Below are positions 26,005 to 61,767 of a stretch of 64,000 bases of DNA, piece after piece. This DNA is from a virus. The notes under the pieces are model-generated. The model made no database searches and was not told the DNA's origin. It saw only the letters and a program-made list of their open reading frames with translations. Made by a program: the position numbers and the translations under genes. The stretch lies in IMG/VR virus record IMGVR_UViG_3300043137_000338, one strand, 5' to 3'. How positions within the stretch are numbered: the first letter of the stretch is position 1; every line of letters starts with the position of its first letter.

Positions 26005-26029
26005 TTATAAATAGTTGTAGGAGGAAACT
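26005..26029 (+). promoter_or_regulatory. T4-type late promoter TATAAATA + AGGAGGAAAC RBS cassette (endonuclease-gene cassette)
   Basis: TATAAATAGTTGTAGGAGGAAACTATG; near-identical cassettes at 58625, 60224 and 61731. Confidence 0.7.
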
Positions 26030-26734
26030 ATGAACTATTATAAAATTTACGAGAACTTAGTTTTAGATGCTAAAACTAATCCAAAACTAGATGACTATAA
26101 GGAATCTCATCATATAATACCTTGTTGTATGGGTGGTGATGACTCTAAAGAGAATCTAGTTCTACTAACTGCAAGACAGCACTATTTGGCGCATTGGTTG
26201 TTGTATAAAATGTATAAAACTAGTAGTCTGGTTCATGCATGGCATTCGATGAGTAGAATTGGGGTTGGTCAAAGCGCCAGATCTATAAATTCTCATTTAT
26301 TTGAATACTGTAAAAAAGAACGTTCAAAAATTCTATCGATACAGTATTCAGGTGAAGGTAACAATTTCTATGGTAAACACCATTCTGAAGAAACTAAACA
26401 GAAATTATCTAATATACATTCTGGAAAGAATTATAGAACTGAAAAACAGATATCTGATTGGGTTGAGATGGTCGCCAAAAAACCGAAATCTAATGAACAT
26501 AGAGAGAAGATCGGAAAGAAGGGTCTTAGAATGTTACAAAATGTGCATACTAAAGAAATAATTAGAGTATCAATTTCTGATGGTAGATTTAATTGTTCCG
26601 ATTGGGTTAACCCAAGAAAATTGAAACCCGAACAGAAATATAAATGTTCTCATTGTGATACTGTGACGACTGCCTCTAATATAAAAAGATGGCATAATGA
26701 TAAATGTAAAAGGAAACCGCAAAATGAAAATTAA
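26030..26734 (+). CDS. free-standing HNH homing endonuclease inside the uvsX intein
   Basis: HNH motif ESHHIIPCCMGGDDSKENLVLLTARQHYLAH, NUMOD-like NFYGKHHSEETKQKLS; own promoter and RBS. Confidence 0.8.
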   Translation: MNYYKIYENLVLDAKTNPKLDDYKESHHIIPCCMGGDDSKENLVLLTARQHYLAHWLLYKMYKTSSLVHAWHSMSRIGVGQSARSINSHLFEYCKKERSKILSIQYSGEGNNFYGKHHSEETKQKLSNIHSGKNYRTEKQISDWVEMVAKKPKSNEHREKIGKKGLRMLQNVHTKEIIRVSISDGRFNCSDWVNPRKLKPEQKYKCSHCDTVTTASNIKRWHNDKCKRKPQNEN

Positions 26735-27260
26735 ATCGATAACACCTGTTGGTAAAAAGAAGGTATATGACATTTCAGTAAAGGATGTTGAACATTATGT
26801 GTTAGAAAATGGAGTAGTTACTCATAACACTGGTTCTTACTACTCTGCTGACAATATCTTCATTCTTGGTCGTCAACAAGAAAAAGACGGAACTGAAATT
26901 GTTGGTTACAACTTTATCATCAACGTAGAAAAGAGTCGTTATGTTCGTGAGAAATCTAAAATACCTGTTAGCGTATCTTTTGACGGCGGCATTAGCCGTT
27001 GGTCTGGCTTACTTGACATTGCTCTAGAATCTGGACATGTCGTTAAACCAAGCAATGGATGGTACAGCAAAGTAGATCAAGATGGCGTTGTTGAAGATAA
27101 AAAGTATCGTCTGAAGGATACCGATAGCAAAGACTTCTGGCTTCCAATTATTCAGCAAAAGACTTTCTCTGAGTTTGTTAAAAATAAGTATCAAGTTTCG
27201 ACTTCAGAAATTATGAAGGGTGAAGACATTGATGCTGAACTTGCGTTGATTGGAGACTAA
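26724..27260 (+). CDS. uvsX: split-intein C-fragment (35 aa) fused to UvsX C-terminal extein
   Basis: KVYDISVKDVEHYVLENGVVTHN (intein blocks F/G) then TGSYYSADNIFILGRQQEKDGTEIVGYNFIINVEKSRYVREKSK.. which continues the T4 UvsX sequence TGPMYSADTVFIIGKRQIKDG..; ATG 26724 with AAAGGAAAC. Confidence 0.85.
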   Translation: MKIKSITPVGKKKVYDISVKDVEHYVLENGVVTHNTGSYYSADNIFILGRQQEKDGTEIVGYNFIINVEKSRYVREKSKIPVSVSFDGGISRWSGLLDIALESGHVVKPSNGWYSKVDQDGVVEDKKYRLKDTDSKDFWLPIIQQKTFSEFVKNKYQVSTSEIMKGEDIDAELALIGD

Positions 27261-27262
27261 TT

Positions 27263-27631
27263 ATGTATGAAGTTCCAGATGATTGGGAACTTCCGCCGCA
27301 TCAAGTTGTTAAACACAAAGATGCGGTTGGAGTTGATGCGATAAAGTTGCTCGCCGAGCCATATTCAGGTATAATAGTGTCTTACGGTAAGGTGTCTTTT
27401 GATACGATCCGAGGCGACGCTGACGAAGAGCATGTGACGATGAAGTTTGACTACACGATGCATGAATCTGCTGGGAAAGACTTCACAGCAAAACAGTTAA
27501 AAGACTTCGAAGTGTACTTGGGTGAATTTCTAAGAGATCTTATCATTTACGGTATCAAAGAAAATAATATAGCATATACAGGCGGTGTTGATGACTCTAG
27601 AGAAAACGATTCTTTCAAATCTCATCAATAA
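27263..27631 (+). CDS. hypothetical protein (gene 40 position between uvsX and 41)
   Basis: 122 aa; T4 gp40 is 120 aa at the same position; no sequence motif checked. Confidence 0.35.
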   Translation: MYEVPDDWELPPHQVVKHKDAVGVDAIKLLAEPYSGIIVSYGKVSFDTIRGDADEEHVTMKFDYTMHESAGKDFTAKQLKDFEVYLGEFLRDLIIYGIKENNIAYTGGVDDSRENDSFKSHQ

Positions 27632-28988
27632 TGAGGAGTATTGCAGAAAGGTAGTTCCACATCTTAAGAAAGAATACTTTGCGGATCGCAAAGATGCTAT
27701 GATCGCAAGTCTTGTTGTTTCCTTCTTCACGAAGTACAATAAGACAGCATCTACAGAAATTCTGGCTATTGAGATCGCCAACCTCAAGGGGTTGACTGAC
27801 AAAGAAGTCCCAGAATATACTGAATATCTTCAAAGTCTAAACACTCAAGAAAAGAACCAAGAATGGCTGCTTGAGCAAACAGAGCAATTCTGTAAAGACC
27901 GAGCAGTTTACAACGCCATTCTTGCTTCCATTAAAATCATTGAAGGAAAAGACCAAGTCCACAGTAAGGATGCGATCCCTTCATTGTTGTCTGAAGCACT
28001 TGGCACTTGCTTTGACAATCACATTGGTCATGATTACATTGAGAATGCTGAGGAACGATTTGACTTCTATAACAGAATAGAAGAAAAGATTCCGTTCGAT
28101 TTGGAGATGTTTAACCTTATCACTAAAGGTGGTCTGTCTCGTAAAACTCTAAACATTGCGCTTGCCGGCACTGGTGTTGGTAAGTCTTTGTTCATGTGTC
28201 ACGTGGCAGCTGGTGCACTAACCAAGGGTAGAAATGTCTTATACATAACTATGGAAATGGCTGAGGAGCGCATCGCAGAACGTATTGACGCGAATCTCTT
28301 GAACCTGACCATGGATGAATTGAAGGTTGTTGATAGAGAAGTCTTCAATACGCGTATTGGTAAAATCGCTAAAAAGACTCAAGGTAAGCTAATCGTCAAA
28401 GAGTATCCTACTGCATCAGCGCACGCTGGACATTTCCGTGCCTTGTTAGAAGAGCTAAAGCTAAAGCGAGAATTCATCCCTGACATTATCATGATCGACT
28501 ATTTAAACATCTGCGCTTCTCAACGTATGAAGCAGGGAGCGAATGTAAATTCTTATACATATGTAAAGGCAATCGCTGAAGAGCTTCGTGGTCTGGCAGT
28601 AGAGTACAACGTTCCGATTATTTCGGCAACTCAAACTACCAGAGGTGGTTTCACGAATAGCGATCCAGGATTGGAAGATACTTCAGAATCATTCGGCTTG
28701 CCTGCCACTGCTGACTTTATGTTTGCCTTGGTATCAAACGAAGAACTTGAGCAGTTGAATCAGATCATCGTTAAGCAATTGAAGAACCGTTACAATGATC
28801 TGAACTACTATAAGAGATTTGTTCTTGGTATTGATCGCTCGAAGATGAAACTCTATGATGTTGAGATTTCTGCTCAAGAAGGTTTGTCCGACGCAGGTAA
28901 ACGAAGCCATGATGACGGTCCGATGTTTGATAAGAGTGAATTCGGTAAACGGTTGAAGACAGATGGCTACGAAGGTTTTAAGTTCTAA
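27591..28988 (+). CDS. 41: replicative DNA helicase gp41 (DnaB-like)
   Basis: Walker A LAGTGVGKS, YITMEMAEERIAERIDANLL and the VKAIAEELRGLAVEYNVPIISATQ arginine-finger region parallel T4 gp41; intact, no intein. Confidence 0.88.
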   Translation: MTLEKTILSNLINNEEYCRKVVPHLKKEYFADRKDAMIASLVVSFFTKYNKTASTEILAIEIANLKGLTDKEVPEYTEYLQSLNTQEKNQEWLLEQTEQFCKDRAVYNAILASIKIIEGKDQVHSKDAIPSLLSEALGTCFDNHIGHDYIENAEERFDFYNRIEEKIPFDLEMFNLITKGGLSRKTLNIALAGTGVGKSLFMCHVAAGALTKGRNVLYITMEMAEERIAERIDANLLNLTMDELKVVDREVFNTRIGKIAKKTQGKLIVKEYPTASAHAGHFRALLEELKLKREFIPDIIMIDYLNICASQRMKQGANVNSYTYVKAIAEELRGLAVEYNVPIISATQTTRGGFTNSDPGLEDTSESFGLPATADFMFALVSNEELEQLNQIIVKQLKNRYNDLNYYKRFVLGIDRSKMKLYDVEISAQEGLSDAGKRSHDDGPMFDKSEFGKRLKTDGYEGFKF

Positions 28989-28998
28989 GGAGAATTAT

Positions 28999-30300
28999 AT
29001 GGTAAAGGTTATTGTCGCTGATAGAAAACATGATTGCACTCATTTGTTGGGTCAATTTCTAGACGAGTCTCACTACGATGTTCTGTTGGAAGAAGATTGT
29101 GATGTGTACGCTCCGCCAGAATATGGTGATTCGATTGAGAATAAGGACGAGCGTAGAATCATCATGAAGTTTCGCAAGAACTTCTTCACCAAAGAACAGC
29201 AGGATGCTGCCTATGCAGGTCTACGTGAAGCTGCCATCGAAACTCAGAACAGAGGTTTGGCTGCAGGTCCGCGTGCTGATAAGTTAGGCAATCGCGATTG
29301 GGTCACTGAGTATGAGTATGACATGGTTGACTATTTTCTCAAGCCAACTGGTAACCTGTTCGGCGAAGATCCAGTAGAAGAAATTCGTAAGAAGCATGCT
29401 TCTAAGAAAGGTGTCATCTCGAATCGTTCCAATGTATGGTCCATTGACCGTGTTCAGAAAGATAAGTTCAACTTTGAAGCATGGGTAGATGCCACTAAAA
29501 TTCTTTCCGAGGATGAGCAGATTGCTTCCGCCAAGTACGTGGCTGAGAAACTGATCTGCGCCACCACCTATGCTAACTCTGTTAACTCTGGTATTGCTGG
29601 TTGGTTCGATCGCTATCCACGCATCCCTTATGGTCGCGCCACTTCTTATACTCAGAAGAATCCTGAGAAGTTTGCCATGGCTTTTCCTTTCCTACAAACC
29701 CTTGCTGCTGGATTTAAAGATTTGCTCCCATGGCGTTATGGGAATCAAATGGAAGCTGCTTCGAAGATTGATAAGCAATTCCTGGTTCCTGGAACACCAT
29801 TCACCACTGTAACTGTTAACAAAACTTTCCGCACAGCTGCTCACTACGATGCCGGTGACTTGACTAGCGGGTTGTCTAACTTGTTGACTCTATCCAACGA
29901 TGGTCGTTACAGCGGTGCTTACCTTGTTGCACCTGAGTATCGTGTAGCTGTTAACGTTCGTCCCGGTGATTTGCTTCTGATCAACAACCATGAAGTTATG
30001 CACGGAAATACTCCTATCGTCTGTCAAGAAGGTTCTGAGCGTATTTCGCTTGTGGTTTACTTCCGTGAGAAGATGCTTGAGCTCGGTACTAAGGAATATG
30101 AAGACTGTCGATTTGACTTTGTTGAATCTCGTCGTCTAAATAAAGAACATCCAGAGTGGCGTCCACTCTGGAATGGTGTTGGTTCTGGTATGTGGGAAAG
30201 CCAAGACTGGTATGACTACCTAGAATCGAAGATGGGAACTACTGTTTTGCAGAAGTATCATCCAGACTCTGTTAAATCTTCGCTTGAAGACTTCTTTTAA
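28999..30300 (+). CDS. 2OG-Fe(II) dioxygenase-like protein (possible nucleic-acid base oxygenase)
   Basis: HxD AAHYDAGD and distal His NNHEVMHGNTPI; ATG 28999 with AAGGAG. Confidence 0.45.
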   Translation: MVKVIVADRKHDCTHLLGQFLDESHYDVLLEEDCDVYAPPEYGDSIENKDERRIIMKFRKNFFTKEQQDAAYAGLREAAIETQNRGLAAGPRADKLGNRDWVTEYEYDMVDYFLKPTGNLFGEDPVEEIRKKHASKKGVISNRSNVWSIDRVQKDKFNFEAWVDATKILSEDEQIASAKYVAEKLICATTYANSVNSGIAGWFDRYPRIPYGRATSYTQKNPEKFAMAFPFLQTLAAGFKDLLPWRYGNQMEAASKIDKQFLVPGTPFTTVTVNKTFRTAAHYDAGDLTSGLSNLLTLSNDGRYSGAYLVAPEYRVAVNVRPGDLLLINNHEVMHGNTPIVCQEGSERISLVVYFREKMLELGTKEYEDCRFDFVESRRLNKEHPEWRPLWNGVGSGMWESQDWYDYLESKMGTTVLQKYHPDSVKSSLEDFF

Positions 30301-30314
30301 ACTGAAAGATAATT

Positions 30315-31661
30315 ATGAAAATTTTAATGGTAATGCATACGTTCAATAACTTCGGTGGTATCATCAATCACTGTGAACATTTGATGGCTGGTTTAAAAGA
30401 GCTTGGTCACGAAGTTAACTTTGCATATTTGAAGGGTAATAAAACTGTTCGCCCAGTTCAGATTCCTGAAACGCTGGGTGAAGGATGGGAGATTGGTGTT
30501 GGCTCAGGTTATCCTGTCCACCAGGGTGATGGTTGGATGGCACCTTACTACTCTTACAAAGTTAAAGAGTCTATCAATAAATTCGTTGAGGATGCTAACA
30601 AACATGACATCGTAATCTGGCAATCTATCTTTGGATTTAAGAACAAAGACACTGAGAAAGATGTCAACTGGCTGCCGATGATCGAGAAGGTTAAAGCGAA
30701 ACAAGTTGCCATTATTCATGACGGTAATCTGAAGAAGTTGTATACTTGGATTCAATTGTTCGAACAACATTTTGCAGGTCTGGCATGTGTGCATCCTGCA
30801 GCGTATGATTCAGCTGACTTCATGAACGTTCCGCGTGCAATGATTCTGAACCCACAAGACATCGCTGGTATTCCTGAGACTCCAAGATATGCTGGTCGTG
30901 AGAACAAGATCCTTTCTATTCAAACATTCAAGCGTTGGAAGCGTGTTGATGACTTAGTTCGTGCAGTTCCACACATGCCAATGGTTAAAACTCTGGTAGG
31001 TGGTTATGGTATGGAAGCTGCATACATGATGTCCAAGGAAAAGTGTAAGGAAGAATACTACTGTACGAAGGAGTATGATCCAGATGCAACTGACAAAATG
31101 TTGGGTAAGCGTATCTGGGAAAATGCTGAAAACTCTGGCACCTTCGACTACCTTGGCTTTATCTCTGGCGGTAAGCGTGATGAGATCCTAACTACATCTA
31201 AATTTCTTGTAGATCCAAGCTGGTCAAATACCTATGGCGAGCATTTCAACCGTGTGGTGATTGATGCCATGCGTATTGGTACTGTTCCCATTGCAATTAA
31301 CTACGGTGTTTCCAACAACGAAGAAGGTAATGGAGTTGTTCTAAAGGCAGGTATCAATTATTGTATGTTGAAGCGTTCTTATACACCAAGACAATACGCT
31401 GAAAAAATCACAGAGTACTGCGATATGAGCCCAGAAGCATACAAACAGATTCAGTTGAACAACTATGAACTGATTAAACAGTTTGATCGTAAGGTGATCG
31501 CTCAGCACTATGTCGATCTCGCAATGGGTAAGCAAACTGGTTATCTAAATGAATTGAAGACCAAATCTAATCACGACCCTAAGCTGCCAAAGCTGGCTCG
31601 TAAAATGTTTGATGAACACTTTGAAGATAACACTGTAGATCTAGAATCTTTCTTTGGTTGA
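30315..31661 (+). CDS. GT-B fold glycosyltransferase (GT4-like)
   Basis: N-terminal MKILMVMHTFNNFGG..HEV motif and C-terminal E..E nucleotide-sugar motif NTYGEHFNRVVIDAMRIGTVPIA. Confidence 0.65.
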   Translation: MKILMVMHTFNNFGGIINHCEHLMAGLKELGHEVNFAYLKGNKTVRPVQIPETLGEGWEIGVGSGYPVHQGDGWMAPYYSYKVKESINKFVEDANKHDIVIWQSIFGFKNKDTEKDVNWLPMIEKVKAKQVAIIHDGNLKKLYTWIQLFEQHFAGLACVHPAAYDSADFMNVPRAMILNPQDIAGIPETPRYAGRENKILSIQTFKRWKRVDDLVRAVPHMPMVKTLVGGYGMEAAYMMSKEKCKEEYYCTKEYDPDATDKMLGKRIWENAENSGTFDYLGFISGGKRDEILTTSKFLVDPSWSNTYGEHFNRVVIDAMRIGTVPIAINYGVSNNEEGNGVVLKAGINYCMLKRSYTPRQYAEKITEYCDMSPEAYKQIQLNNYELIKQFDRKVIAQHYVDLAMGKQTGYLNELKTKSNHDPKLPKLARKMFDEHFEDNTVDLESFFG

Positions 31662-31703
31662 AATGTGACCTAAATACATGATGCAGACATATGGATTGGA
31701 ATC

Positions 31704-32618: not shown

Positions 32619-32638
32619 ACCCTACTGAGAGTAGGGTT
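32618..32638 (+). terminator. hairpin AACCCTACTGAGAGTAGGGTT (cassette copy 5)
   Basis: Inverted repeat directly after the stop codon. Confidence 0.55.
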
Positions 32639-32643
32639 ATCGC

Positions 32644-32672
32644 TTGACTTTAATGCAACAAAGAGGTAAAAT
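32644..32672 (+). promoter_or_regulatory. early promoter TTGACTTTAATGCA..N..TAAAAT (leaderless start for the next gene)
   Basis: -35 32644-32649, -10 TAAAAT 32667-32672; the ATG at 32679 sits at the predicted +1. Confidence 0.55.
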
Positions 32673-32678
32673 AACGGT

Positions 32679-50615: not shown

Positions 50616-50765
50616 ATGGTAACAAGACACTTCGAATGCGAGCAGTGCCAAGCTCGCGGTAAAATTACACTAAAGGGCGAGGATCTACAACAATCAGATG
50701 TTGTATATTGTCCAGTATGTTCAGCCGATATCTATGAGCCAGAGGAGCTTGACGAGGAAGAATAA
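50616..50765 (+). CDS. small zinc-ribbon protein (49 aa)
   Basis: CEQC..(19)..CPVC; not in the ORF track (<60 aa). Confidence 0.4.
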   Translation: MVTRHFECEQCQARGKITLKGEDLQQSDVVYCPVCSADIYEPEELDEEE

Positions 50766-50775
50766 ATAGTTCACT

Positions 50776-51201
50776 ATGTGGACTTATAATACTGAAACAA
50801 TTGAAACTCTTCCTGAAGACTGCGTCGGATTCGTATATATGATTACGAATCTGACGAATAGTCGCATGTATATAGGTAAAAAACTTTCCAAATTTTCAAA
50901 GACTACATATAAAACTGTAACTCTTAAGAATGGAACCAAGAAGAAAAAGAAGATCAAATCTAAGATAGATTCTGATTGGATGGAGTATTATGGGTCAAGT
51001 ATTGAACTAAATAAAGATGTAGAATCTTTTGGGAAGGAAAACTTCACCCGAGAGATTCTATTTTTCTGCAAATCAAAAGCGGAATGCTCATATGTCGAAG
51101 CCAGAGAGCAATTTTCCCGCAGAGTTCTTGAAAGTGATACATATTATAATGGGCAAATAAGTTGCAGAATTCATAAGTCTCATATAAAAGGAAAACTATA
51201 A
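50776..51201 (+). CDS. GIY-YIG homing endonuclease (short Seg-like)
   Basis: GFVYMITNLTNSRMYIGK GIY-YIG motif; preceded by AATAAATAG late-promoter-like sequence. Confidence 0.7.
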   Translation: MWTYNTETIETLPEDCVGFVYMITNLTNSRMYIGKKLSKFSKTTYKTVTLKNGTKKKKKIKSKIDSDWMEYYGSSIELNKDVESFGKENFTREILFFCKSKAECSYVEAREQFSRRVLESDTYYNGQISCRIHKSHIKGKL

Positions 51202-53525: not shown

Positions 53526-53534
53526 CACATTTAG

Positions 53535-53992: not shown

Positions 53993-54254
53993 TGAACTAC
54001 AACCCTGGGCAATCGAAAATTTGCGTTCTCTTGCAGAAGGATGCACTGTCGTTTTTACCAAGCAAGACGGAACAGAACGAAAAATGCGATGCACACTCAA
54101 CCCAGCTAGCATCCCACAAGAAAGCCAGCCAAAAACCGATGGCGAAGAAGCTACCAGCACTCCTGGACCGACGATTCGGGTCTTTGACTTAGACAAGCAA
54201 CAGTGGCGCTCGTTCCGCTGGGAATCTGTCAAGCAGTTCACTCCATGCATGTAA
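53967..54254 (+). CDS. hypothetical protein
   Basis: ORF only. Confidence 0.3.
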   Translation: MKTNLERFNELQPWAIENLRSLAEGCTVVFTKQDGTERKMRCTLNPASIPQESQPKTDGEEATSTPGPTIRVFDLDKQQWRSFRWESVKQFTPCM

Positions 54255-54279
54255 AAGCCCTACGAAGTGAAGGGGCTTT
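54254..54279 (+). terminator. hairpin AAGCCCTACGAAGTGAAGGGGCTT (cassette copy 7)
   Basis: Imperfect inverted repeat of the same family. Confidence 0.5.
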
Positions 54280-54305
54280 ACTTTAATTCATCTTCAGAGT
54301 AAAAT
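54277..54305 (+). promoter_or_regulatory. early promoter TTTACTTTAATTCA..N..TAAAAT
   Basis: -35 54277-54282, -10 54300-54305. Confidence 0.55.
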
Positions 54306-54330
54306 AGTCTTTAACTTGATGAGGTCACCT

Positions 54331-55428: not shown

Positions 55429-56318
55429 TGATTTTGGTTGATTATAGTCAGGTATCTCTGGCAGCTATTCTTACCTTTCAACGAGAATTGAAAGGTAATG
55501 AAGCTGAGGTTATTAATCTTATTCGTCACGTTACACTTTCTACCATCAAGTCCTTCAAGAAGAAGTATGGTAAAGAGTATGGTGAAGTTGTAATCTGTTG
55601 TGATGGTCGTAAGTACTGGCGCCGAGATTTCTTTGAATACTACAAAGCTGGACGTAAGAAGGCACGCGAGAATTCAGATCTGGATTGGACGCTGATCTTT
55701 GACACACTTTCTGATATGCGTGCTGATTTGATTGAGCACTTCCCTTATCGTGTTATTCACGTTGAACGTGCAGAAGCAGATGACATTATTGCTGTCATGG
55801 CTAAGTGGACACAAACCAATGCGTTGGTTCAGCAGGGTTTGATGGAAGATCCGCAGAAGGTTCTTATTCTTTCTTCAGATGGAGATTTCTTCCAACTGCA
55901 AAAATTTGATAACGTGAGCCAGTGGTCACCGATGCAGAAAAAGTACATCAAGGTTACTAAGAAAGAACTGCACGAGAAAATTATCACCCATATCGTTAAA
56001 GCTAGTGACGATGGTATTCCAAACATCCTAAGTAAAGATGATGTCTTTGTTAAAGGTGAGCGTCAGAAATCTGTTTCTCAGAAACGACTTGACGAATTCC
56101 TTGAGATTGGTTTCGCTGCATGTAAGAACGATGAAGAACGTCGTAATTGGCATCGGAATCAGACTCTGGTTGATTTTGAATTCATTCCCGAAGATCTTTC
56201 AAAAGAAATCACCACTGCATATCTAAATAACAAACCAAAGGGTGATCGCATGTCGGTCATGAACTATCTAATTAACAAAAAGTGTCGACTGCTTTTGAAC
56301 GATATTGAGGATTTCTGA
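55425..56318 (+). CDS. rnh: RNase H / 5'-3' exonuclease (FEN family)
   Basis: ..ICCDGRKYWRRDFFEYYKAGRKKARE.. and ..ERAEADDIIAV.. parallel T4 RNase H ..LCIDNAKSGYWRRDFAYYYKKNRGKAREE..KYEADDHIAV.. Confidence 0.85.
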   Translation: MMILVDYSQVSLAAILTFQRELKGNEAEVINLIRHVTLSTIKSFKKKYGKEYGEVVICCDGRKYWRRDFFEYYKAGRKKARENSDLDWTLIFDTLSDMRADLIEHFPYRVIHVERAEADDIIAVMAKWTQTNALVQQGLMEDPQKVLILSSDGDFFQLQKFDNVSQWSPMQKKYIKVTKKELHEKIITHIVKASDDGIPNILSKDDVFVKGERQKSVSQKRLDEFLEIGFAACKNDEERRNWHRNQTLVDFEFIPEDLSKEITTAYLNNKPKGDRMSVMNYLINKKCRLLLNDIEDF

Positions 56319-56797
56319 TGACAAAATATATTACTGAAATGCTAACCGAGATTAATAACAACCCAAAGATTGCTTCTAAGTATAAAGAGAATGCATCTTT
56401 GCAATTCGTTTTCGAGTTTGCATTTAATCCAGCTAGAAAGTTTCTCCTTCCGGAAGGTGATCCTCCATTTAAGAAAGACGCTGCTCCAATTGGTATGAGC
56501 CCAGCTAATTTACATATGGAAGTTAAGAAATTCTATATCTTTACTAGAAAAGATTTAACTCAAGTTCGCAGAGAATCTCTTTTTATTAATCTTCTAGAAA
56601 GCGTGCACCCTACCGAGGCAGCGTTGCTCATGGCAGTCAAAGACCAGGACCTTCCAAGGCTCTACCCGAACCTGACGCACAGAACCCTGTACGACGCTGG
56701 CTTCGTGCAATCGACGCCTCCAGCGACCCCTACAGCCCCTGCAAAGAAGGCTGCCAAGGTAAAAAACGAGGTGACACTGCCTGGAGCCCAAGTCTAG
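56318..56797 (+). CDS. hypothetical protein
   Basis: ORF only. Confidence 0.3.
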   Translation: MTKYITEMLTEINNNPKIASKYKENASLQFVFEFAFNPARKFLLPEGDPPFKKDAAPIGMSPANLHMEVKKFYIFTRKDLTQVRRESLFINLLESVHPTEAALLMAVKDQDLPRLYPNLTHRTLYDAGFVQSTPPATPTAPAKKAAKVKNEVTLPGAQV

Positions 56798-56838
56798 TGG
56801 GAAATAACCCTCCGGAGCGAGGGGTTATTTGGAAGGTG

Positions 56839-56868
56839 TTGACTTTAATTCGCTCCTGGAGTATAATA
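56839..56868 (+). promoter_or_regulatory. early promoter TTGACTTTAATTCG..N..TATAAT
   Basis: -35 56839-56844, -10 56863-56868; preceded by hairpin AAATAACCC..GGGGTTATTT 56802-56830. Confidence 0.6.
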
Positions 56869-56897
56869 GCTGTAAGAAAGTTAAAAAGGAACCCGAA

Positions 56898-57218
56898 GTG
56901 AAGAAAGTCTTTTTGATCGCCGCTGTTGCTGTCGCCTCTGTTGGTATTTTGGCATCGGCACCTGCTTGTGCTCAAAATCATAGGCACCAGCACCATAACG
57001 GAACTCGTGATATTATTATCGGTACCGTTATCGGTGGTGTTGTGACCGGAGTTATTATGAACTCGCAGCGCGGTCAAGTTATCGTACAACCGCAAGTTGT
57101 ATATCAGCCTGAGCCGATGCCTGTTTATCAACCTGCACCAAAACAGTACTGTGAAGTAAAATTCATTCAAGATCAATTTGGTCAGGTTCGCGAATTTACT
57201 GCTTGCTACTATCGCTAA
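56898..57218 (+). CDS. small secreted His-rich protein
   Basis: GTG 56898 after AAAGGA; signal peptide KKVFLIAAVAVASVGILASAPACAQ; HRHQHH. Confidence 0.45.
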   Translation: MKKVFLIAAVAVASVGILASAPACAQNHRHQHHNGTRDIIIGTVIGGVVTGVIMNSQRGQVIVQPQVVYQPEPMPVYQPAPKQYCEVKFIQDQFGQVREFTACYYR

Positions 57219-57219
57219 T

Positions 57220-57657
57220 ATGAAACAGAAATGGATTGATGCATTCATGGATACTGCTGAGCGTTTTGCTCAGCTGAGTTCTGCCACCAGGTTGAAGGTG
57301 GGTGCAGTGGTAGTCCAAGAAAACCGTATAATCTCCATCGGCTATAATGGAATGCCAGCTGGCTGGAGTAATGAGTGTGAAGAAGAAATTGTTGTCGATG
57401 TCGACGACAAGTGGTTGGTAACATTGAAAACAAAAGATGAGGTTATTCATGCAGAAGCTAATGCAATTCTCAAGTTGGCACGCGATGGTGAACGAGGCAC
57501 TGGCGCCAGCATATTCATCACTCATGCTCCTTGCATCAACTGTGCTAAGTTGGTCTACGGCGCTGGAATCAAGAACGTTTACTACCGTAACAGCTACCGT
57601 GACACCGCTGGTGAAGACTTTCTGGTGAAGTGCGAAATAAATGTTGAAAAAACTTGA
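57220..57657 (+). CDS. cd: dCMP deaminase
   Basis: Zinc-binding HAEANAI..HAPCINCAKL; ATG 57220. Confidence 0.85.
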   Translation: MKQKWIDAFMDTAERFAQLSSATRLKVGAVVVQENRIISIGYNGMPAGWSNECEEEIVVDVDDKWLVTLKTKDEVIHAEANAILKLARDGERGTGASIFITHAPCINCAKLVYGAGIKNVYYRNSYRDTAGEDFLVKCEINVEKT

Positions 57658-57682
57658 CTTTAAACGAAAATCGCTGTATAAT
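57654..57682 (+). promoter_or_regulatory. early promoter TTGACTTTAAACGA..N..TATAAT driving a non-coding transcript
   Basis: -35 57654-57659, -10 57677-57682. Confidence 0.6.
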
Positions 57683-57688
57683 AACGCT

Positions 57689-57919
57689 AAATAGATGATA
57701 AGGCATAGTCTTATCAAACCAAGGAATCAATTGCAAATGTCGTGTCTCTTATCCAGAAAACATCTACCTCTATCAAATAGAGTCTGGACAGGCGCACGCC
57801 CACAATCAGGAAATGTATTTGCGATTGAGTATGATGTTGAGGGTTTTGGTAAGAAGACGTAACGGTCTTACTTAATTTTACCAAAACCCTCGGAGATGAA
57901 AGTCTCTCGAGGGTTTTTT
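57689..57919 (+). ncRNA. candidate ~230-nt structured small RNA ending in an intrinsic terminator
   Basis: No ORF; long hairpin 57839-57890 (GAGGGTTTTGGTAAG..CTTACTTAATTTTACCAAAACCCTC) overlapping the terminator hairpin 57887-57913 + TTTTTTGTTTT. Confidence 0.45.
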
Positions 57920-57954
57920 GTTTTACCCCTACAGACTGTAGGGTCTTATGAAGT

Positions 57955-58011
57955 GCTTTACTTTAATTCACTTCTGAAGTAAAATAGGTGCTTAGGTTGA
58001 GTGAAGAGGTT
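57955..58011 (+). repeat. 57-nt promoter repeat unit copy A (GCTTTACTTTAATTCACTTCTGAAGTAAAATAGGTGCTTAGGTTGAGTGAAGAGGTTG)
   Basis: Near-identical units at 58042, 62806 and 62889; each holds a -35/-10 promoter and a conserved leader. Confidence 0.7.
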
Positions 58012-58041
58012 GTTCTGTTCTTCGCTTAGCTTGAAAGAAGT

Positions 58042-58098
58042 GCTTGACTTTAATTCAGGTTTGAAGTAAAATAGGTGCTTACGTTGAATGGCAACGGC
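58042..58098 (+). repeat. 57-nt promoter repeat unit copy B
   Basis: -35 TTGACT 58044-58049, -10 TAAAAT 58067-58072. Confidence 0.7.
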
Positions 58099-58170
58099 TG
58101 TTTGACTAAAGATCTTTAACAATTTGCGTACCAATTTATGAGACTGACTGCTTCGGTAGTCAGTCTATGT

Positions 58171-58243
58171 ACCCTCTTAGCCAAGCTGGTAAGGCATCGG
58201 ATTTTGATTCCGACATGCGGTGGTTCGAATCCATCAGGGGGTG
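58171..58243 (+). tRNA. tRNA-Gln (UUG)
   Basis: Cloverleaf by hand: acceptor ACCCTCT/AGGGGGT, anticodon loop TTTTGAT, T-loop TTCGAAT, CCA encoded. Confidence 0.75.
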
Positions 58244-58337
58244 CCATATTAAAACATATTATCTGAGTACAAGGCTCAGTGCTACGAAGCAAAATGTCTA
58301 GCAAGCCTCAAGAGGAAGCTATAGTGTGTTTTAATAT

Positions 58338-58398
58338 GGGAGTATGGCGCAGCGGACTTTTAATCCGTTGGTCGAGGGTTCGAATCCCTCTGCTCCTA
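58338..58398 (+). ncRNA. 61-nt tRNA-like element lacking a D-arm (anticodon-loop-like CTTTTAA)
   Basis: Acceptor GGGAGTA/TGCTCCT, anticodon-like arm, T-arm GAGGG TTCGAAT CCCTC and ACCA, but only 7 nt where the D-arm should be. Confidence 0.4.
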
Positions 58399-58416
58399 CC
58401 AAACGAGTTCTTAGGT

Positions 58417-58487
58417 GTGACTATGATGTAGCGGTAGCATCAGAGATTGTGATTCTCTTTGTATGGGTTCAACTCCCATTAGTCACC
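58417..58487 (+). tRNA. tRNA-His (GUG)
   Basis: Acceptor GTGACTA/TAGTCAC, anticodon loop TTGTGAT. Confidence 0.65.
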
Positions 58488-58501
58488 CCTAAGAATTTTA
58501 T

Positions 58502-58574
58502 GCAACTTTAGCTGATGTGGTCATAGCGGTGGTTTGAAGAGCCATTGAAGCAGGTTCGATCCCTGCAGGTTGCA
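58502..58574 (+). tRNA. tRNA-Phe (GAA)
   Basis: Acceptor GCAACTT/AGGTTGC, anticodon loop TTGAAGA, T-loop TTCGATC, CCA encoded. Confidence 0.7.
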
Positions 58575-58582
58575 CCAATAAT

Positions 58583-58620
58583 TCCCGGTTAGCTCAAAGG
58601 TAGAGCATACGACTGATTTA
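58583..58620 (+). pseudogene. truncated tRNA 5' half (acceptor + D-arm + 5' anticodon stem, anticodon-loop start CTGAT), interrupted by the endonuclease cassette
   Basis: TCCCGGT TA GCTC AAAGGTA GAGC A TACGA CTGAT.. runs straight into TTTTATAAATAG; no matching 3' half found downstream. Confidence 0.5.
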
Positions 58621-58624
58621 TTTT

Positions 58625-58651
58625 TATAAATAGATATAGGAGGAAACAACT
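58625..58651 (+). promoter_or_regulatory. late promoter TATAAATA + AGGAGGAAAC cassette
   Basis: TTTTTATAAATAGATATAGGAGGAAACAACTATG. Confidence 0.7.
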
Positions 58652-59254
58652 ATGTTTATTTGTAAATACTGTAGTAAAGATTGCAACAAAAGGTCACATA
58701 AAAATCATGAATTAAGGTGTCCTAAAAATGCAAACAGGGAATATAAAAATGGAATGTTAGGTAAGAAGGGTAGTAATCAATACACAAAATCAAAATCATT
58801 GTGTATTGAGCCGCCAGTATATGACAGATCTAACTGGAAAAGAGGTGGGGCAGCAGCTTGGTCTACCGAAGAAAGATCAGAAAATGCTAAAAAGCAAGGG
58901 TTCGGTGGTTATAGAGAAAACGCTGGTAACTCGAAGAAGTTTCGAGTTATTGACTCGTTTGGAAAAGAAACTACACTTCAAAGTTCTTATGAATTTAGGT
59001 GTAGTGAGATTTTAAATGAACTTGGTATAAAATGGATTAGACCTAAAGCGTTGAAATATGATAATAGGAATTACTTTGCAGATTTTTATCTTCCAGATTT
59101 AGATATCTGGCTTGACCCAAAGAATAGCTATAAAGCAAAACATGACGAAGAAAAGATAAGAAAGGTCATTGAGCAAAACTCTGTTAGATTGTTTGTTCTT
59201 CTGGAACACCAGCTATCTAAAGAATATATTGGGAGATTAGCTGAGACGGATTAG
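58652..59254 (+). CDS. putative homing endonuclease (Cys-rich N-terminus, PD-(D/E)XK/Vsr-like C-terminus)
   Basis: CKYCSKDC..H..C zinc motif; ..FADFYLPDLDIWLDPK.. nuclease-like core; uses the shared endonuclease-gene cassette. Confidence 0.45.
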   Translation: MFICKYCSKDCNKRSHKNHELRCPKNANREYKNGMLGKKGSNQYTKSKSLCIEPPVYDRSNWKRGGAAAWSTEERSENAKKQGFGGYRENAGNSKKFRVIDSFGKETTLQSSYEFRCSEILNELGIKWIRPKALKYDNRNYFADFYLPDLDIWLDPKNSYKAKHDEEKIRKVIEQNSVRLFVLLEHQLSKEYIGRLAETD

Positions 59255-59355
59255 CAGTGTCTTGATAAGGCACAGAGGTTGGATCGTTACCAACATCTTC
59301 TACCAGTAGATTAGTAAGACAGAGGATCGTTACCTCTACTGGGAACCAGATTTAT

Positions 59356-59426
59356 GCGGGATTAGTTTAGTGGTAAAACGTCATCCTTCCAAGTTGAAGT
59401 TGCGAGTTCGATTCTCGCATCCCGCT
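59356..59426 (+). tRNA. tRNA-Gly (UCC)
   Basis: Acceptor GCGGGAT/ATCCCGC, anticodon loop CTTCCAA, CCA encoded. Confidence 0.75.
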
Positions 59427-59635
59427 CCAGTTTTAGGATCATTTCAGCAAACTTAAAAACTTTCTTTTATCCAGAAACTAAAAAGTTGATCCTGTTATTT
59501 TCAATTCCGCAGAACCCGAGCATGGTGCATGGGCTTGACTGTTAATCAATGTTTAGCTGGGATCGTTACCCAGATGCGGAGCCAAATATCGCCTTGACTG
59601 ATGGCGTACAATGAGATAAGTAATCAGTCACCTAT

Positions 59636-59707
59636 GCCTCGTTAACTCAGCGGTAGAGTGTCTCCCTTACAAGGAGAAGGTCGGCGGTTCGAACCCGTCA
59701 CGAGGTA
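59636..59707 (+). tRNA. tRNA-Val (UAC)
   Basis: Acceptor GCCTCGT/ACGAGGT, anticodon loop CTTACAA, T-loop TTCGAAC, CCA encoded. Confidence 0.7.
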
Positions 59708-59716
59708 CCAAATTTC

Positions 59717-59790
59717 GCGTCTTTAGCACAACTGGATAGTGCACTGGGCTACGAACTCAGAGGTTGGGGATTCGAATTCCTCAGGACGCA
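59717..59790 (+). tRNA. tRNA-Arg (ACG)
   Basis: Acceptor GCGTCTT/AGGACGC, anticodon loop CTACGAA, CCA encoded. Confidence 0.7.
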
Positions 59791-59800
59791 CCAAACAAAT

Positions 59801-59889
59801 GGAAAGTAATGCAGCGGGGTTGGTCCTGCGACCAGCCTTGAAAACTGGGTTCTCAGAAATGGGATGGGGTTCGACTCCTCTGCTTTCCG
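59801..59889 (+). tRNA. tRNA-Ser (UGA), type II
   Basis: Acceptor GGAAAGT/GCTTTCC, anticodon arm CCAGC CTTGAAA ACTGG, long variable arm, CCA encoded. Confidence 0.7.
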
Positions 59890-59898
59890 CCAAATTAT

Positions 59899-59981
59899 GG
59901 AGTGAATGGAACAATGGTGTTCTAGCTGGCTGTAACCCAGTGGCACTTCGGTGCAGGTAGGTTCGATCCCTACTCACTTCA
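59899..59981 (+). tRNA. tRNA-Tyr (GUA), type II
   Basis: Anticodon arm GCTGG CTGTAAC CCAGT, variable hairpin GCAC TTCG GTGC, CCA encoded. Confidence 0.65.
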
Positions 59982-59990
59982 CCAAGTTTT

Positions 59991-60098
59991 AGGATACTTA
60001 CAGCAAAACTAACTCAAACGTTAGGTAACTGGTTCGACTCCAGTTTCACGCAATAGCGCGAATAGCTCATTCGGTAGAGCAGACGAAGAAAGTATCCT
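59991..60098 (+). ncRNA. circularly permuted tRNA-like element closed by a 9-bp inverted repeat
   Basis: Order is anticodon-like hairpin, T-arm ACTGG TTCGACT CCAGT, 3' acceptor TTCACGC-A, 3-nt spacer, 5' acceptor GCGCGAA, D-arm TA GCTC ATTCGGTA GAGC; flanked by AGGATACTT (59991-59999) and AAGTATCCT (60090-60098). Confidence 0.4.
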
Positions 60099-60108
60099 GT
60101 TATTCAAT

Positions 60109-60193
60109 GGAAGCGTGGCAGAGTGGTCTATTGTATCTGTCTAGAAAGCAGCCGACTCGAAAGGGTCCGTGAGTTCGAATCTCACCGCTTCCT
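60109..60193 (+). tRNA. type II tRNA (Ser-like), anticodon loop CUAGAAA (nominal anticodon AGA; identity uncertain)
   Basis: Acceptor GGAAGCG/CGCTTCC, D-loop GAGTGGTCTAT, variable hairpin GACTC GAAA GGGTC, T-loop TTCGAAT. Confidence 0.5.
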
Positions 60194-60223
60194 CCCTTGA
60201 GTTGATGTCAAGACTCGAACTTT

Positions 60224-60249
60224 TATAAATAGTTACATAGGAGGAAACT
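60224..60249 (+). promoter_or_regulatory. late promoter TATAAATA + AGGAGGAAAC cassette
   Basis: CTTTTATAAATAGTTACATAGGAGGAAACTATG. Confidence 0.7.
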
Positions 60250-60876
60250 ATGTACTATACTGTTTATAAAATAACGAATCGAATCAATGGTAAGATCTAT
60301 ATTGGATCACATAAAACCAAAGATTTGAATGACAATTATATGGGTTCTGGAAAGTATCTTAAATACTCTCAAGAGAAGCATGGTATAGAAAATTTTACCA
60401 AAGAAATTCTTTTTGTTTTTGATACTCCAGAACTTATGTACGCAAAAGAAGCTGAGATTGTTAATGATGAATTCCTTGCTGAAGAAAATACATACAATCT
60501 AAAGCTAGGTGGATATGGTGGGTTTGATTATCTAAATGCTTGGAAGGAAAATCCGACACATTCTGCTGACCATTACTTAAAGATGTCTTTGCGATTGAAA
60601 GAAAAATATCCAAATAGTCCTATGTACGGACGTAAACATTCTGAAGATTCTAAAAGTAAAAACAGTCAATCTAATCTTGGTAATCAAAGGTTTCTTGGGC
60701 GTAAACATTCTGACGAAACTAAACAAAAAATGCGCTATAGCGCATTGGAAAAACATAGTAAAGATAAAAATTCGCAGTTCGGAACTATGTGGATAACCGA
60801 TGGTTTGGAAAACAAAAAGATCAATAAACTACACGAAATTCCTGATGGTTGGCGTCGTGGTAGAGTGATAAATTAA
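60250..60876 (+). CDS. GIY-YIG homing endonuclease (SegB-like, in tRNA cluster)
   Basis: YKITNRINGKIYIGSHK GIY-YIG motif, repeated NUMOD3-like GRKHSEDSK / GRKHSDETK. Confidence 0.8.
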   Translation: MYYTVYKITNRINGKIYIGSHKTKDLNDNYMGSGKYLKYSQEKHGIENFTKEILFVFDTPELMYAKEAEIVNDEFLAEENTYNLKLGGYGGFDYLNAWKENPTHSADHYLKMSLRLKEKYPNSPMYGRKHSEDSKSKNSQSNLGNQRFLGRKHSDETKQKMRYSALEKHSKDKNSQFGTMWITDGLENKKINKLHEIPDGWRRGRVIN

Positions 60877-60902
60877 GTATCTTCGCATACTTCAGATGGG
60901 TC

Positions 60903-60931
60903 TTGACTTTTGATGAATTGTGTAGTAGAAT
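60903..60931 (+). promoter_or_regulatory. sigma70-type promoter TTGACT..N18..TAGAAT
   Basis: Preceded by hairpin AAGTATCTTCGCATACTT 60876-60893. Confidence 0.45.
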
Positions 60932-61038
60932 AGAAACATATGAATATGAATGGGAAGAACAAGAACTTGTTCTTTCGTTGATTAACAAATGGAGAAACGG
61001 TGATCGATTCTCTGCTAATGATTATAGGAGGAAGTCAC

Positions 61039-61618
61039 ATGCCAGCAGTATTTTTAGTATCTGACACACACTTTCGGGCATAGTGGAGTATGCAGATTCA
61101 CTGAGGCAGACGGAGTGACTAAGATTCGACCGTGGACTGATCCAGAAGAAATGGATGAGGAAATGGTCAAGCGATGGAACGAAACCGTCAAGCCAAACGA
61201 CAAGGTTTATCACTTAGGTGACGTTGTCATTAACCGCAAGTCGTTAAGTATTATGAGCCGGTTAAATGGTGACAAGGTTCTGATCAAGGGTAACCATGAC
61301 ATCTTCAAGTTAGAGGAATATACTCAATACTTCAGAGACATTCGTGGTAGTCATGTGATGAACGGTATGATTTTAACTCATATCCCTCTGCATCCAAGAC
61401 AATTATATCGTTTCGGTACTAACATTCATGGTCACTTACATACCAATCGTGTTATGTTTGACGACAAGGAAATGGGTGAGATTATCGATCCGCGTTACTT
61501 CTGTGTTTGCGTTGAACAAACAGATTTTCGCCCTATCTTATTTGAAGACGTAATTAAGCGTATCAAAGAACAGGGTGGTACCGTGGGTTTCAAGAACGGT
61601 AATGGTCCAGTGATGTAA
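61039..61618 (+). pseudogene. calcineurin-like metallophosphoesterase interrupted by a +1 frameshift at UUU CGG G (61072-61078)
   Basis: Frame 1 gives MPAVFLVSDTHF then R A stop; frame +1 continues GHSGV.. and carries GNHD and GHLH motifs; removing C61075 restores DTHFGH. Confidence 0.6.
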
Positions 61619-61730
61619 GAATTGGAAGATGATCTCGGTGCTTCCGTTCTCCCGAGTTAGAATAACTGATATCGTTTCAGTAAGACGGAGCCAAATTTAG
61701 GAGGATTACGGTTTCGTAAACTGTTATTTT

Positions 61731-61767
61731 TATAAATAGATGTATACTAATTATAAGGAGAAACAGT
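61731..61767 (+). promoter_or_regulatory. late promoter TATAAATA + AAGGAGAAAC cassette
   Basis: TTTTTATAAATAGATGTATACTAATTATAAGGAGAAACAGTATG. Confidence 0.65.

Follow-up and report, generated by a model that had tools for sequence, protein, structure and literature searches.

The 64,000-nt stretch of viral DNA analysed here (IMG/VR record IMGVR_UViG_3300043137_000338, hereafter the window) contains six homing endonuclease genes (HEGs), some of them putative. Our analyses indicate that each HEG probably carries its own minimal expression switch, composed of a phage late promoter and a hairpin and inherited with the gene, and that the similar copies found in the window are parallel solutions. 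We estimate the probability of this interpretation at about 0.72.

Late promoter and ribosome-binding motifs upstream of the HEGs

An initial annotation of the window had pointed out a nearly identical motif in front of four endonuclease genes. The exact 12-mer TTTTATAAATAG is indeed found at 26003, 58622, 60221 and 61728, all four copies being on the + strand, the coding one, 17-29 nt before HEG start codons. As that annotation had described, the genes that follow belong to differing families (assigned here to HNH, zinc-finger (Zn-finger) PD-(D/E)XK, SegB-like GIY-YIG and PDDEXK_5), the fourth copy deviates from the others in having a 15-nt spacer followed by AAGGAGAAAC AGT ATG, and a degenerate form (AATAAATAG at 50761, 6 nt before the ATG) precedes the GIY-YIG gene at 50776. 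Its reading of the motif as a T4-type late promoter followed by a Shine-Dalgarno sequence (SD) also appears to be correct, with the TATAAATA octamer and AGGAGG before HEG starts. A sixth HEG (3966-4658) had been overlooked. The cassettes, their predicted pairings in read-through RNA and the genes behind them are as follows, +1 being the predicted start of late transcription.

26003..26058, + strand: cassette 1, with TATAAATA at 26006-26013, predicted +1 at ~26019 (A of AGGAGG), SD at 26019-26024 and ATG at 26030
26003..26058, + strand: predicted hairpin of cassette 1, 5' arm UUUUAUAAAUAGUU, 3' arm AACUAUUAUAAAA (codons 2-6)
26030..26734, + strand: free-standing HNH + NUMOD3 HEG (phrog_655, E = 3.5e-53), between the split-intein uvsX halves
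58622..58666, + strand: cassette 2, with TATAAATA at 58625-58632, predicted +1 at ~58638 (A of AGGAGG), SD at 58638-58643 and ATG at 58652
58622..58666, + strand: predicted hairpin of cassette 2, 17 bp, promoter and spacer pairing with CUAUGUUUAUUUGUAAA
58652..59254, + strand: putative HEG with Zn finger and PD-(D/E)XK fold (Vsr / I-Bth0305I-like), its 3' end overlapping tRNA-Ile(GAU) (59231-59305)
60221..60271, + strand: cassette 3, with TATAAATA at 60224-60231, predicted +1 at ~60237, SD at 60239-60244 and ATG at 60250
60221..60271, + strand: predicted hairpin of cassette 3, outer stem UUUUAUAAAUAGU / ACUGUUUAUAAAA, inner stem UACAUAG / CUAUGUA, GAGGAAA in the loop
60250..60876, + strand: SegB-like GIY-YIG + NUMOD3 HEG within the tRNA cluster (45% identity to T4 SegB over the full length, E = 2e-52)
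61715..61770, + strand: cassette 4, with TATAAATA at 61731-61738, predicted +1 at ~61744, SD AAGGAG at 61755-61760 and ATG at 61768
61715..61770, + strand: predicted hairpin of cassette 4 in read-through RNA, the promoter U-run pairing with UUAUAAGGA (SD) and ACUGUU with AACAGU
61768..62181, + strand: putative PDDEXK_5 (PD-(D/E)XK) HEG, whose final 51 nt double as the 5' part of tRNA-Ser(GCU) (62131-62220)
50761..51201, + strand: cassette 5 and SegE-type GIY-YIG gene downstream of nrdB, with AATAAATAG 6 nt before ATG 50776 (gene 50776-51201)
3940..4658, + strand: cassette 6, CTAAATA AGTGT AGGAGG ATATTAAA ATG, and GIY-YIG-like HEG (phrog_314; gene 3966-4658)
3940..4658, + strand: predicted read-through pairing of cassette 6, an upstream CCUC...CACUUAUUUG segment pairing with promoter and SD

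Gene 60250 can be assigned to the SegB-like HEGs from its GIY-YIG and NUMOD3 domains, its homology with T4 SegB and its location between tRNA genes. The Cys-rich protein encoded at 58652-59254 has no Pfam match. Its AlphaFold model (pLDDT 84) shows a C-terminal PD-(D/E)XK fold, and its best Foldseek matches are weak but consistent (E 1.6e-3 to 0.06: Bax1, I-Bth0305I, TnsA, Vsr and T7 endonuclease I); it is thus a putative PD-(D/E)XK-fold homing endonuclease. PDB sequence searches for both PD-(D/E)XK HEGs, with the single sequence and with a profile, yielded nothing credible, and the 61768 protein matched no PDB chain. Cassette 5 is devoid of an SD, and its late mRNA is predicted to have no leader or one of 2 nt. 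Promoter-to-ATG distances in the SegB/SegE-like families are bimodal, 1-6 nt or 17-32 nt (50761-50778 in the window; L081, L088, L091, L095, L098, L107, L116 and L130, L numbers designating sequences compared with the window). The short class, without SD, implies that these late mRNAs would be leaderless or nearly so.

With one mismatch allowed, the 12-mer has 6 matches for 0.88 expected, a count reached in 0/100 shuffles. In addition, the window has just three exact copies of AGGAGGAAAC, at 26019, 58638 and 60239. In cassettes 1-3, the spacers from promoter to AGGAGG are 4, 4 and 6 nt long, and the gaps from AAAC to ATG are 1, 4 and 1 nt. The number of bare TATAAATA octamers, 5 for 3.8 expected, is unremarkable; the non-random part is their placement and the extended identity rather than this count, since four of the five copies are located just upstream of HEG starts, the fifth (15504) being within an open reading frame (ORF). 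Mere chance recurrence of an AT-rich 12-mer would fit the bare octamer count. However, it is extremely improbable in view of the four exact 12-mers, of the shuffles and of the position of every copy on the coding strand shortly before a HEG start, and it is in effect already refuted by the retention of the motif in orthologues.

Signals of the HEGs and of resident genes

A TAAATA-type motif is present within 60 nt upstream of 6/6 HEGs, versus 7/55 other genes. The exact TATAAATA octamer is found upstream of 4/6 HEGs and 0/55 other genes (p = 2.9e-5), and AGGAGG upstream of 4/6 HEGs and 1/56 other genes (p = 1.3e-4), the single non-HEG gene being a frameshifted phosphoesterase gene wedged between two HEGs. 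The HEG octamers are on the coding strand and are placed as expected for T4-type late promoters, which have no -35 element; the variants are CTAAATA (3940) and AATAAATA (50761). Resident late-type motifs are CTAAATA or NATAAATA, and they come with weak ribosome-binding sites (RBSs). In the window, CTAAATA has 16 copies on the + strand and none on the - strand. As GGAAAC is present upstream of only 2/55 resident genes, AAAC was rejected as a resident RBS style.

A near-identical relative, known from a 139-kb contig, provided 10 kb of structural-gene sequence, from gp18 to gp23, in which no TATAAATA was found; gp22, uvsY and a neighbouring gene of this relative use GATAAATA, AATAAATA and CTAAATA. 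The HEG octamer is the canonical T4 form, not the resident form, and it was not found to precede canonical structural late genes in these 10 kb. Both resident variants have been published, CTAAATA in Aeh1 and NATAAATA in cyanophages (PMC1524935, PMC2984593).

The initial annotation had named as its refutation a motif equally common before ordinary late genes; the counts given above for the window argue otherwise. Nevertheless, the cassettes might be generic late promoters with strong RBSs and no special link with endonucleases. Throughout IMG/VR, lysozyme-like, tail and methylase genes are also found behind TATAAATAG..TAGGAGG, hence the design is generic to T4-like phages. Recognisable HEGs make up only ~7 of the ~32 distinct gene groups behind TATAAATA..AGGAGGAAAC, as judged by eye from N-terminal motifs. 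The resident hsp20 gene carries CTAAATAGGAGAAAACTATG, a weaker form of the HEG design, and occluding hairpins are also predicted at resident late-type genes. In contrast, exact TATAAATA and AGGAGG are almost exclusive to HEGs in the window, 24/55 resident genes are devoid of any SD-like motif, and the relative's gp18-gp23 region has no such octamer, which makes a purely generic signal very unlikely. Thus, the combination of promoter and SD is generic to T4-like phages, while its canonical form is found only at HEGs in the window genome.

Predicted hairpins and proposed expression switch

In T4, TATAAATA is located at -13 to -6 (PMC1524935), which places the predicted +1 on the A of AGGAGG in the cassettes at 26003, 58622 and 3940. 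A late start at the SD or a few nt before it would yield a transcript without the 5' arm of the hairpin. In read-through RNA, cassettes 1-3 are predicted to form strong hairpins (z = -3.6, -5.1 and -5.0), whose 5' arm is made of promoter and spacer and whose 3' arm comprises the AUG and the first codons. Cassette 4 forms a local hairpin, with z = -1.1 over the whole 96 nt. The computed cost of opening positions -14 to +3 is, in all six HEGs, 6.6-11 kcal/mol for read-through RNA versus 1.9-3.7 kcal/mol for the predicted late RNA (6.6/2.6, 11.1/2.2, 8.6/1.9 and 9.8/3.7 for cassettes 1 to 4, respectively). Stable structure over the SD and/or AUG that depends on sequence upstream of the late start was therefore found, more weakly for cassettes 1 and 4.

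The pairing partners of the T-run are AAA/AUU/UAU codons (K, I, Y), found as Y-K-I in the HNH and GIY-YIG proteins and as F-I-C-K-Y in the Zn-finger protein, and the C of AAAC closes the UAG/CUA loop. The fixed spacing of 5-7 nt and the T-run would thus be explained by the promoter forming one half of a hairpin that occludes AUG and SD.

Read-through transcripts are to be expected from sigma-70-like promoters upstream of the tRNA-cluster HEGs and from the location of the HNH gene within uvsX. The window contains a family of sigma-70-like promoters, CTTGACTTTAA..TATAAT, with ~15 copies, all on the + strand, which are probably early promoters.

9826, 11091, 18135, 32643, 53534, 56838, 57653, 58043, 62411, 62806, 62890 and others, + strand: near-identical members of the sigma-70-type promoter family, (G/C)TTGACTTTAA-N-TATAAT/TAAAAT

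Two members are part of a 48-nt direct repeat (62803-62850 and 62887-62934). HEGs 58652 and 60250 are preceded by the sites at 57653 and 58043, and HEG 61768 by a related site at 60903, TTGACT-17-TAGAAT. Between these upstream sites and the tRNA-cluster HEGs, no terminator is predicted on the coding strand, on motif evidence only.

We propose that a gp55-type late promoter (TATAAATA, or CTAAATA or AATAAATA in two cases) starts transcripts at the strong SD or a few bases before it. Judging from the sigma-70-like motifs, the HEGs would in addition be embedded in early or middle transcription units, namely the tRNA operon, uvsX and the nrd genes. In read-through RNA, promoter and spacer are computed to pair with the AUG and first codons, or with the SD, which would block translation, and late transcripts devoid of the 5' arm would be translatable. 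The comparisons with orthologues and insertion-free relatives show that each HEG brings its switch along within the mobile insert. Finally, the likeness of the four copies would stem from the same consensus promoter and SD, with a geometry of promoter, +1, SD and AUG that leaves almost no free positions; the four copies would be parallel solutions and not one cassette.

Several points weigh against this interpretation. Late timing, +1 positions and early read-through are all deduced from motifs. The resident late motif being CTAAATA or NATAAATA, efficient use of TATAAATA by gp55 is an assumption. In cassette 1, SD and AUG are located in a 16-nt loop, not in the stem, and taken as a whole, the fold of cassette 4 falls short of significance. 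Part of the pairing comes free, given the AU-rich stems and the self-complementary TTTATAAA. Hairpins of this logic are also predicted at the resident genes 17571, 37279 and 53022, and the device is therefore not specific to HEGs. Further points concern the shared bases of the cassettes and are given with the question of their common origin.

Inheritance of the switch with the HEGs

Orthologues of four HEG families were gathered from IMG/VR and a large protein collection; the IMG/VR search yielded no PDDEXK_5 relatives, which were found in the large protein database instead. Among unique loci, a late-type motif is present within 70 nt upstream for 62% of SegB-like (n = 64), 86% of HNH, 100% of Zn-finger and 80% of PDDEXK_5 genes, versus 0-2.5% of background windows. 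Thus, HEG orthologues at other sites keep a late-type promoter, in agreement with the earlier proposal that the module travels with these genes.

The predicted hairpins are conserved in evolution in the HNH family and in a SegB-like subfamily. In nine HNH orthologue sequences, 97.5% of the helix cells are paired, with one compensatory pair, UA<->CG, that tracks an Asn/Asp second codon. In the SegB-like subfamily, 7 of the 12 helix pairs are compensatory, a value as high being found in 0/500 shuffles, and slid controls are 32-45% paired. The layout of this subfamily has the 5' arm upstream of the promoter, the promoter in the loop, and a 3' arm made of the leader, AUG and codons 2-3.

In several phage lineages, the promoter is 3-8 nt from a disrupted tRNA-Ile half. 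The tRNA in front of the SegB-like unit, which includes a GACTCGAAC box and an upstream hairpin, differs between phages, and in L202 the window's Zn-finger HEG is located, with cassette and tRNA relic, behind a different tRNA. In the relative L326, uvsX is intact, tRNA-Ser(GCU) is uninterrupted and without HEG, and TATAAATA is absent from 7.4 kb. The comparison with insertion-free relatives, which the initial annotation had recommended, thus places the cassette at the 5' edge of the inserted DNA and shows it to be absent where the insertions are absent.

One shared cassette or parallel solutions

The initial annotation had gone further and suggested one portable unit that is exchanged or captures ORFs. 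This part is not supported, as the similarity is confined to the consensus elements, and spacers, flanks and pairing partners are family-specific. We found no homology beyond the consensus elements, upstream flanks and spacers being unrelated, and the spacer of each cassette is complementary to the first codons of its own gene.

A single promoter-RBS cassette of common descent, passed among HEGs or homogenised by gene conversion at the 12-mer, would nevertheless account for several features. Three cassettes of the window agree at 22/22 specified bases, among them a TTTT outside the core, the G that follows the promoter and AAAC, and it is precisely at these identical positions that orthologous cassettes of other phages diverge. 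At TTTT, G and AAAC, co-resident cassettes are therefore more alike than orthologues in the window, but not in L324. The tails after the SD are ATATT, ATTGT, TATT and TAAC in HNH orthologues, and AATTCTT and ATTAA in those of the Zn-finger HEG. The AAAC tail follows AGGAGG in only 2/95 unbiased TATAAATAG..TAGGAGG cassettes of IMG/VR, and the L079 GIY-YIG cassette opens with the same 18 nt (TTTTATAAATAGATATAG) as the Zn-finger HEG cassette of the window. Pure convergence does not fully explain the 22 bases common to three unrelated cassettes; together with the rarity of the AAAC tail and the presence of AATTCTT rather than AAAC in the closest Zn-finger HEG orthologues, this also speaks against independent switches.

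In contrast, the likeness ends at the motif edges, beyond which the upstream flanks are unrelated, and the spacers differ in length and sequence, each complementing its own first codons. Orthologous cassettes drift freely, with a promoter that toggles between TATAAATA, CTAAATA and GATAAATA and with variable tails after the SD. The T-run and AAAC have functional readings, codon pairing and loop closure, respectively. The exact cassette is rare elsewhere (1 match in IMG/VR and 3 in a metagenome set). Homogenisation is not general, since the single genome L324 harbours three different cassettes: AGGAGGAATTCTT for the Zn-finger HEG, AGGAGGAAACTTT for the SegB-like gene and CTAAATA..AGGAGATCAC for the PDDEXK_5 gene. 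We thus consider a cassette of common descent, or homogenised copies, unlikely and favour switches acquired in parallel, although the present data do not distinguish local selection from short-tract conversion as the source of the agreement in AAAC, TTTT and G within the window genome.

Two related ideas were rejected. That of a widely distributed exact cassette fails because the strict pattern yields a single IMG/VR locus and, among the metagenome matches, one at the same HEG and two that are unrelated and of low GC. Similarly, AGGAGGAAAC is not universally conserved, an unbiased scan having shown diverse tails.

HEG modules linked with tRNA genes

Three of the cassettes are adjacent to candidate relics or mimics of targets, as follows.

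58583..58617, + strand: orphan 5' half of tRNA-Ile(GAU), comprising acceptor, D arm and the anticodon stem as far as GAT; it ends 7 nt short of the promoter and delimits the HEG insert on the 5' side
60212..60220, + strand: GACTCGAAC, a conserved box common to many SegB-like loci, here located 3 nt upstream of the promoter of cassette 3
61700..61724, + strand: decayed 5' part of tRNA-Ser, GGAGGAT and an anticodon-arm-like ACGGU UUCGUAA ACUGU, directly upstream of cassette 4

The Zn-finger PD-(D/E)XK family comprises >300 protein clusters and has no Pfam family. Its layout is constant (58583-59348 in the window; L179-L186, L202, L324 and L326): an orphan tRNA-Ile(GAU) 5' half ending at the anticodon is followed by the promoter, the HEG and a complete tRNA-Ile, the 5' end of which overlaps the ORF at its 3' end. 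In the window, the old 3' half of tRNA-Ile survives (~59312-59348), and its acceptor ACTGGGA pairs with TCCCGGT at 58583. From this arrangement, the HEG looks like an invader of tRNA genes that brings a replacement tRNA. In L186-L191, the tRNA-Ile linked with the Zn-finger HEG has an inverted anticodon loop core, CTTATCAAG instead of CTTGATAAG, which could confer immunity to cleavage or denote a dead tRNA.

PDDEXK_5 family ORFs always read 40-50 nt into tRNA-Ser(GCU), 51 nt for that of the window, with the stop codon of the relatives in or near the tRNA anticodon loop; five other lineages share this layout (L203-L209, L324). A group I intron was considered for the tRNA halves that flank HEGs and rejected: Rfam detected only tRNAs, and in most orthologues the orphan 5' halves have no matching 3' exon.

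Just upstream of the SegB-like promoter, a GAGTC..GACTC hairpin is found with the GACTCGAAC box (60196-60220; L055, L079-L086, L098, L105 and L324). The box fits 8/9 positions of the SegB cleavage motif RAWTSGAAC (PMC13096335), which suggests a target relic or an autoregulatory operator of the I-TevI style. By extension, and compatibly with the proposed switch, the tRNA-Ile half, the tRNA-Ser mimic and the GACTCGAAC box might all be target relics or mimics that serve as candidate operators for autorepression. The operator to which I-TevI binds overlaps the enzyme's own late promoter and looks like its homing site (PMC2988022), the GACTCGAAC box is 3 nt upstream of SegB-like promoters, and the tRNA-Ile 5' halves are well preserved beside the promoter when HEG orthologues are only 56-80% identical. 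However, insertion leftovers or homing homology arms would explain the relics equally well, and T4 segB itself has no GACTCGAAC box. We thus regard this additional layer as rather doubtful.

A broader scenario, which we put forward tentatively and consider possible though somewhat improbable, is that the cassette marks the 5' edge of HEG modules built for any T4-like phage, with the canonical TATAAATA and a full AGGAGG even where the resident genes have CTAAATA and weak RBSs or none, and that co-resident modules converge or recombine at the 12-mer. The Zn-finger PD-(D/E)XK genes at tRNA-Ile(GAU) and the PDDEXK_5 genes at tRNA-Ser(GCU) would then be undescribed invaders of tRNA genes, which split or duplicate the 5' part of their target, bring a replacement tRNA that overlaps the ORF, and keep the orphan half as a homology arm and/or operator. 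These tRNA-fused modules are a more original lead than the cassette.

An unusual T-loop, AUCGUUA (GGATCGTTACC) instead of UUCGAAU, was observed in tRNA or tRNA-like units at 59231-59305, 59321-59348, ~59508-59586 and ~61640-61694. Neither ARAGORN nor Rfam at its gathering threshold called two full-length units with this loop; one unit consists of an orphan 3' fragment. The loop could represent an A54/U58 swap, and it removes the TTCGAA core cut by SegB-type enzymes. In L324, two identical SegB-like cassettes and gene starts are found behind different tRNAs (6375-7095 and 8051-8603), and L008 harbours tandemly duplicated tRNA genes (Phe x4, Pro x3) beside a GIY-YIG HEG. Both arrangements recall the tRNA-locus amplification driven by SegB that was described in 2026 (PMC13096335).

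A fractured uvsX gene

The host gene of cassette 1, uvsX (25085-27260), has the layout of a split-intein gene. Its N-extein ends with ..VGGG, followed by Cys211 of the N-intein; the HNH HEG comes next, then a C-intein ending with ..VVTHN and a C-extein starting with TGSYYSAD. The 3' end of the HEG overlaps the downstream uvsX half by 38 nt. The splice-junction residues are canonical, and the Hint and Intein_splicing matches are weak. L326 has an intact UvsX of 354 residues (..MSGG|TGPMYSAD), and L009 has the same fractured layout as the window. From its sequence, uvsX is thus a fractured gene with a split intein and a free-standing HNH HEG. HNH-type fracturing of a split-intein gene had been predicted, not observed, by Dassa et al. 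2009 (PMC2677866).

Comparison with known systems

I-TevI, I-TevII, I-TevIII, segB and Aeh1 mobE are translated from late transcripts only, a hairpin hiding the RBS on longer RNAs, and the RBS is similarly hidden on early read-through RNA for T4 e (lysozyme), soc, 49, 25 and 26 (PMC2988022). For the HEGs of marine fractured genes, Dassa et al. 2009 described an upstream hairpin in 15/16 cases, with TATAAATA in 10 of them, and two conserved complementary motifs common to HEG types and host genes (PMC2677866). Thus, the window adds new members to a mechanism already published for T4, Aeh1 and marine fractured genes.

The window HEGs would follow the T4 scheme (PMC2988022) in being located within an early or middle unit, with their own late promoter just upstream and an inhibitory structure predicted only on longer transcripts. 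Unlike the intron-encoded HEGs of that scheme, they are free-standing, their host units being tRNA operons and the split-intein uvsX, and Rfam scans at gathering and E-value thresholds detected only tRNAs and no group I intron. T4 segB and gene 60250 are both in a tRNA gene cluster and their proteins are 45% identical. T4 segB has GAGAACATAAATA...TATTTATGTTCT, with the promoter, a predicted late one, in the 5' arm and the AUG in the 3' arm, which is the design of cassette 3; its layout also corresponds to that of the SegB-like subfamily. It differs from the window gene by CATAAATA and AGGAG and by the absence of both the GACTCGAAC box and the T-run. In contrast with T4, the SegB-like promoter of the window is the canonical TATAAATA even though the resident genes use CTAAATA or NATAAATA.

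The fractured uvsX shares with the genes of Dassa et al. (PMC2677866) the split intein, the free-standing HEG between the halves, the promoter-containing hairpin and the overlap at the HEG 3' end; the window locus differs in its host gene, uvsX, and in the HNH type of its HEG. The non-HEG genes 17571, 37279 and 53022 recall T4 e, soc, 49, 25 and 26, which are ordinary phage genes, and the mechanism is thus not specific to mobile elements.

The Pfam family PDDEXK_5, which gene 61768 matches, includes I-Ssp6803I. The latter is the PD-(D/E)XK HEG of a cyanobacterial tRNA-fMet group I intron. Both genes are tied to a tRNA gene (PMC2677866); unlike I-Ssp6803I, gene 61768 is devoid of an intron and its ORF runs straight into tRNA-Ser(GCU).

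Thus, in an uncultured, cyanophage-like relative of T4, unrelated selfish endonucleases appear to have the same solution, their own late promoter and a start codon hidden in read-through RNA. The compensatory changes are clean comparative evidence for hairpins that were supported before mostly in T4 and Aeh1. The canonical signals of the HEGs, next to divergent resident ones, suggest that HEG expression modules are tuned for portability. For metagenomic T4-like contigs, TATAAATA-N5-AGGAGG-ATG beside a hairpin would be a cheap flag for HEGs and insertion boundaries, which also picks up unannotated families such as the Zn-finger PD-(D/E)XK one.

Gene content of the window

The window corresponds to the JGI metagenome contig Ga0484712_000051, and all its genes are on the + strand. 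They form a replication and recombination module of a T4-like myovirus that includes uvsW, gp46/47, gp45, gp44/62, regA, DNA ligase, gp43, uvsX, gp41, thyX, nrdA/B, RNase H and dCMP deaminase genes, followed by a cluster of at least 20 tRNA genes. gp45 and gp44/62 are thus inside the window, and gp55 and gp33 outside. The nearest cultured relatives are Synechococcus myoviruses, with only ~71% nucleotide identity (gp41).

The phosphoesterase gene located between two HEGs (61039-61618) has its ATG at 61039 with a TAGGAGGAAGTCAC RBS and a stop after 14 codons, the remainder being in another frame. Its homologue in L208 is intact (184 residues), and the window gene is either a pseudogene or the result of an assembly error. 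A Tet/JBP-family dioxygenase gene followed by a glycosyltransferase gene (28963-31661) suggests hypermodification of cytosine in the phage DNA. Finally, the motif GTTTT(T)AGGAT..(T/C)(A/T)GCAAA recurs 3' of three tRNA genes (59431, 59987 and 63593).

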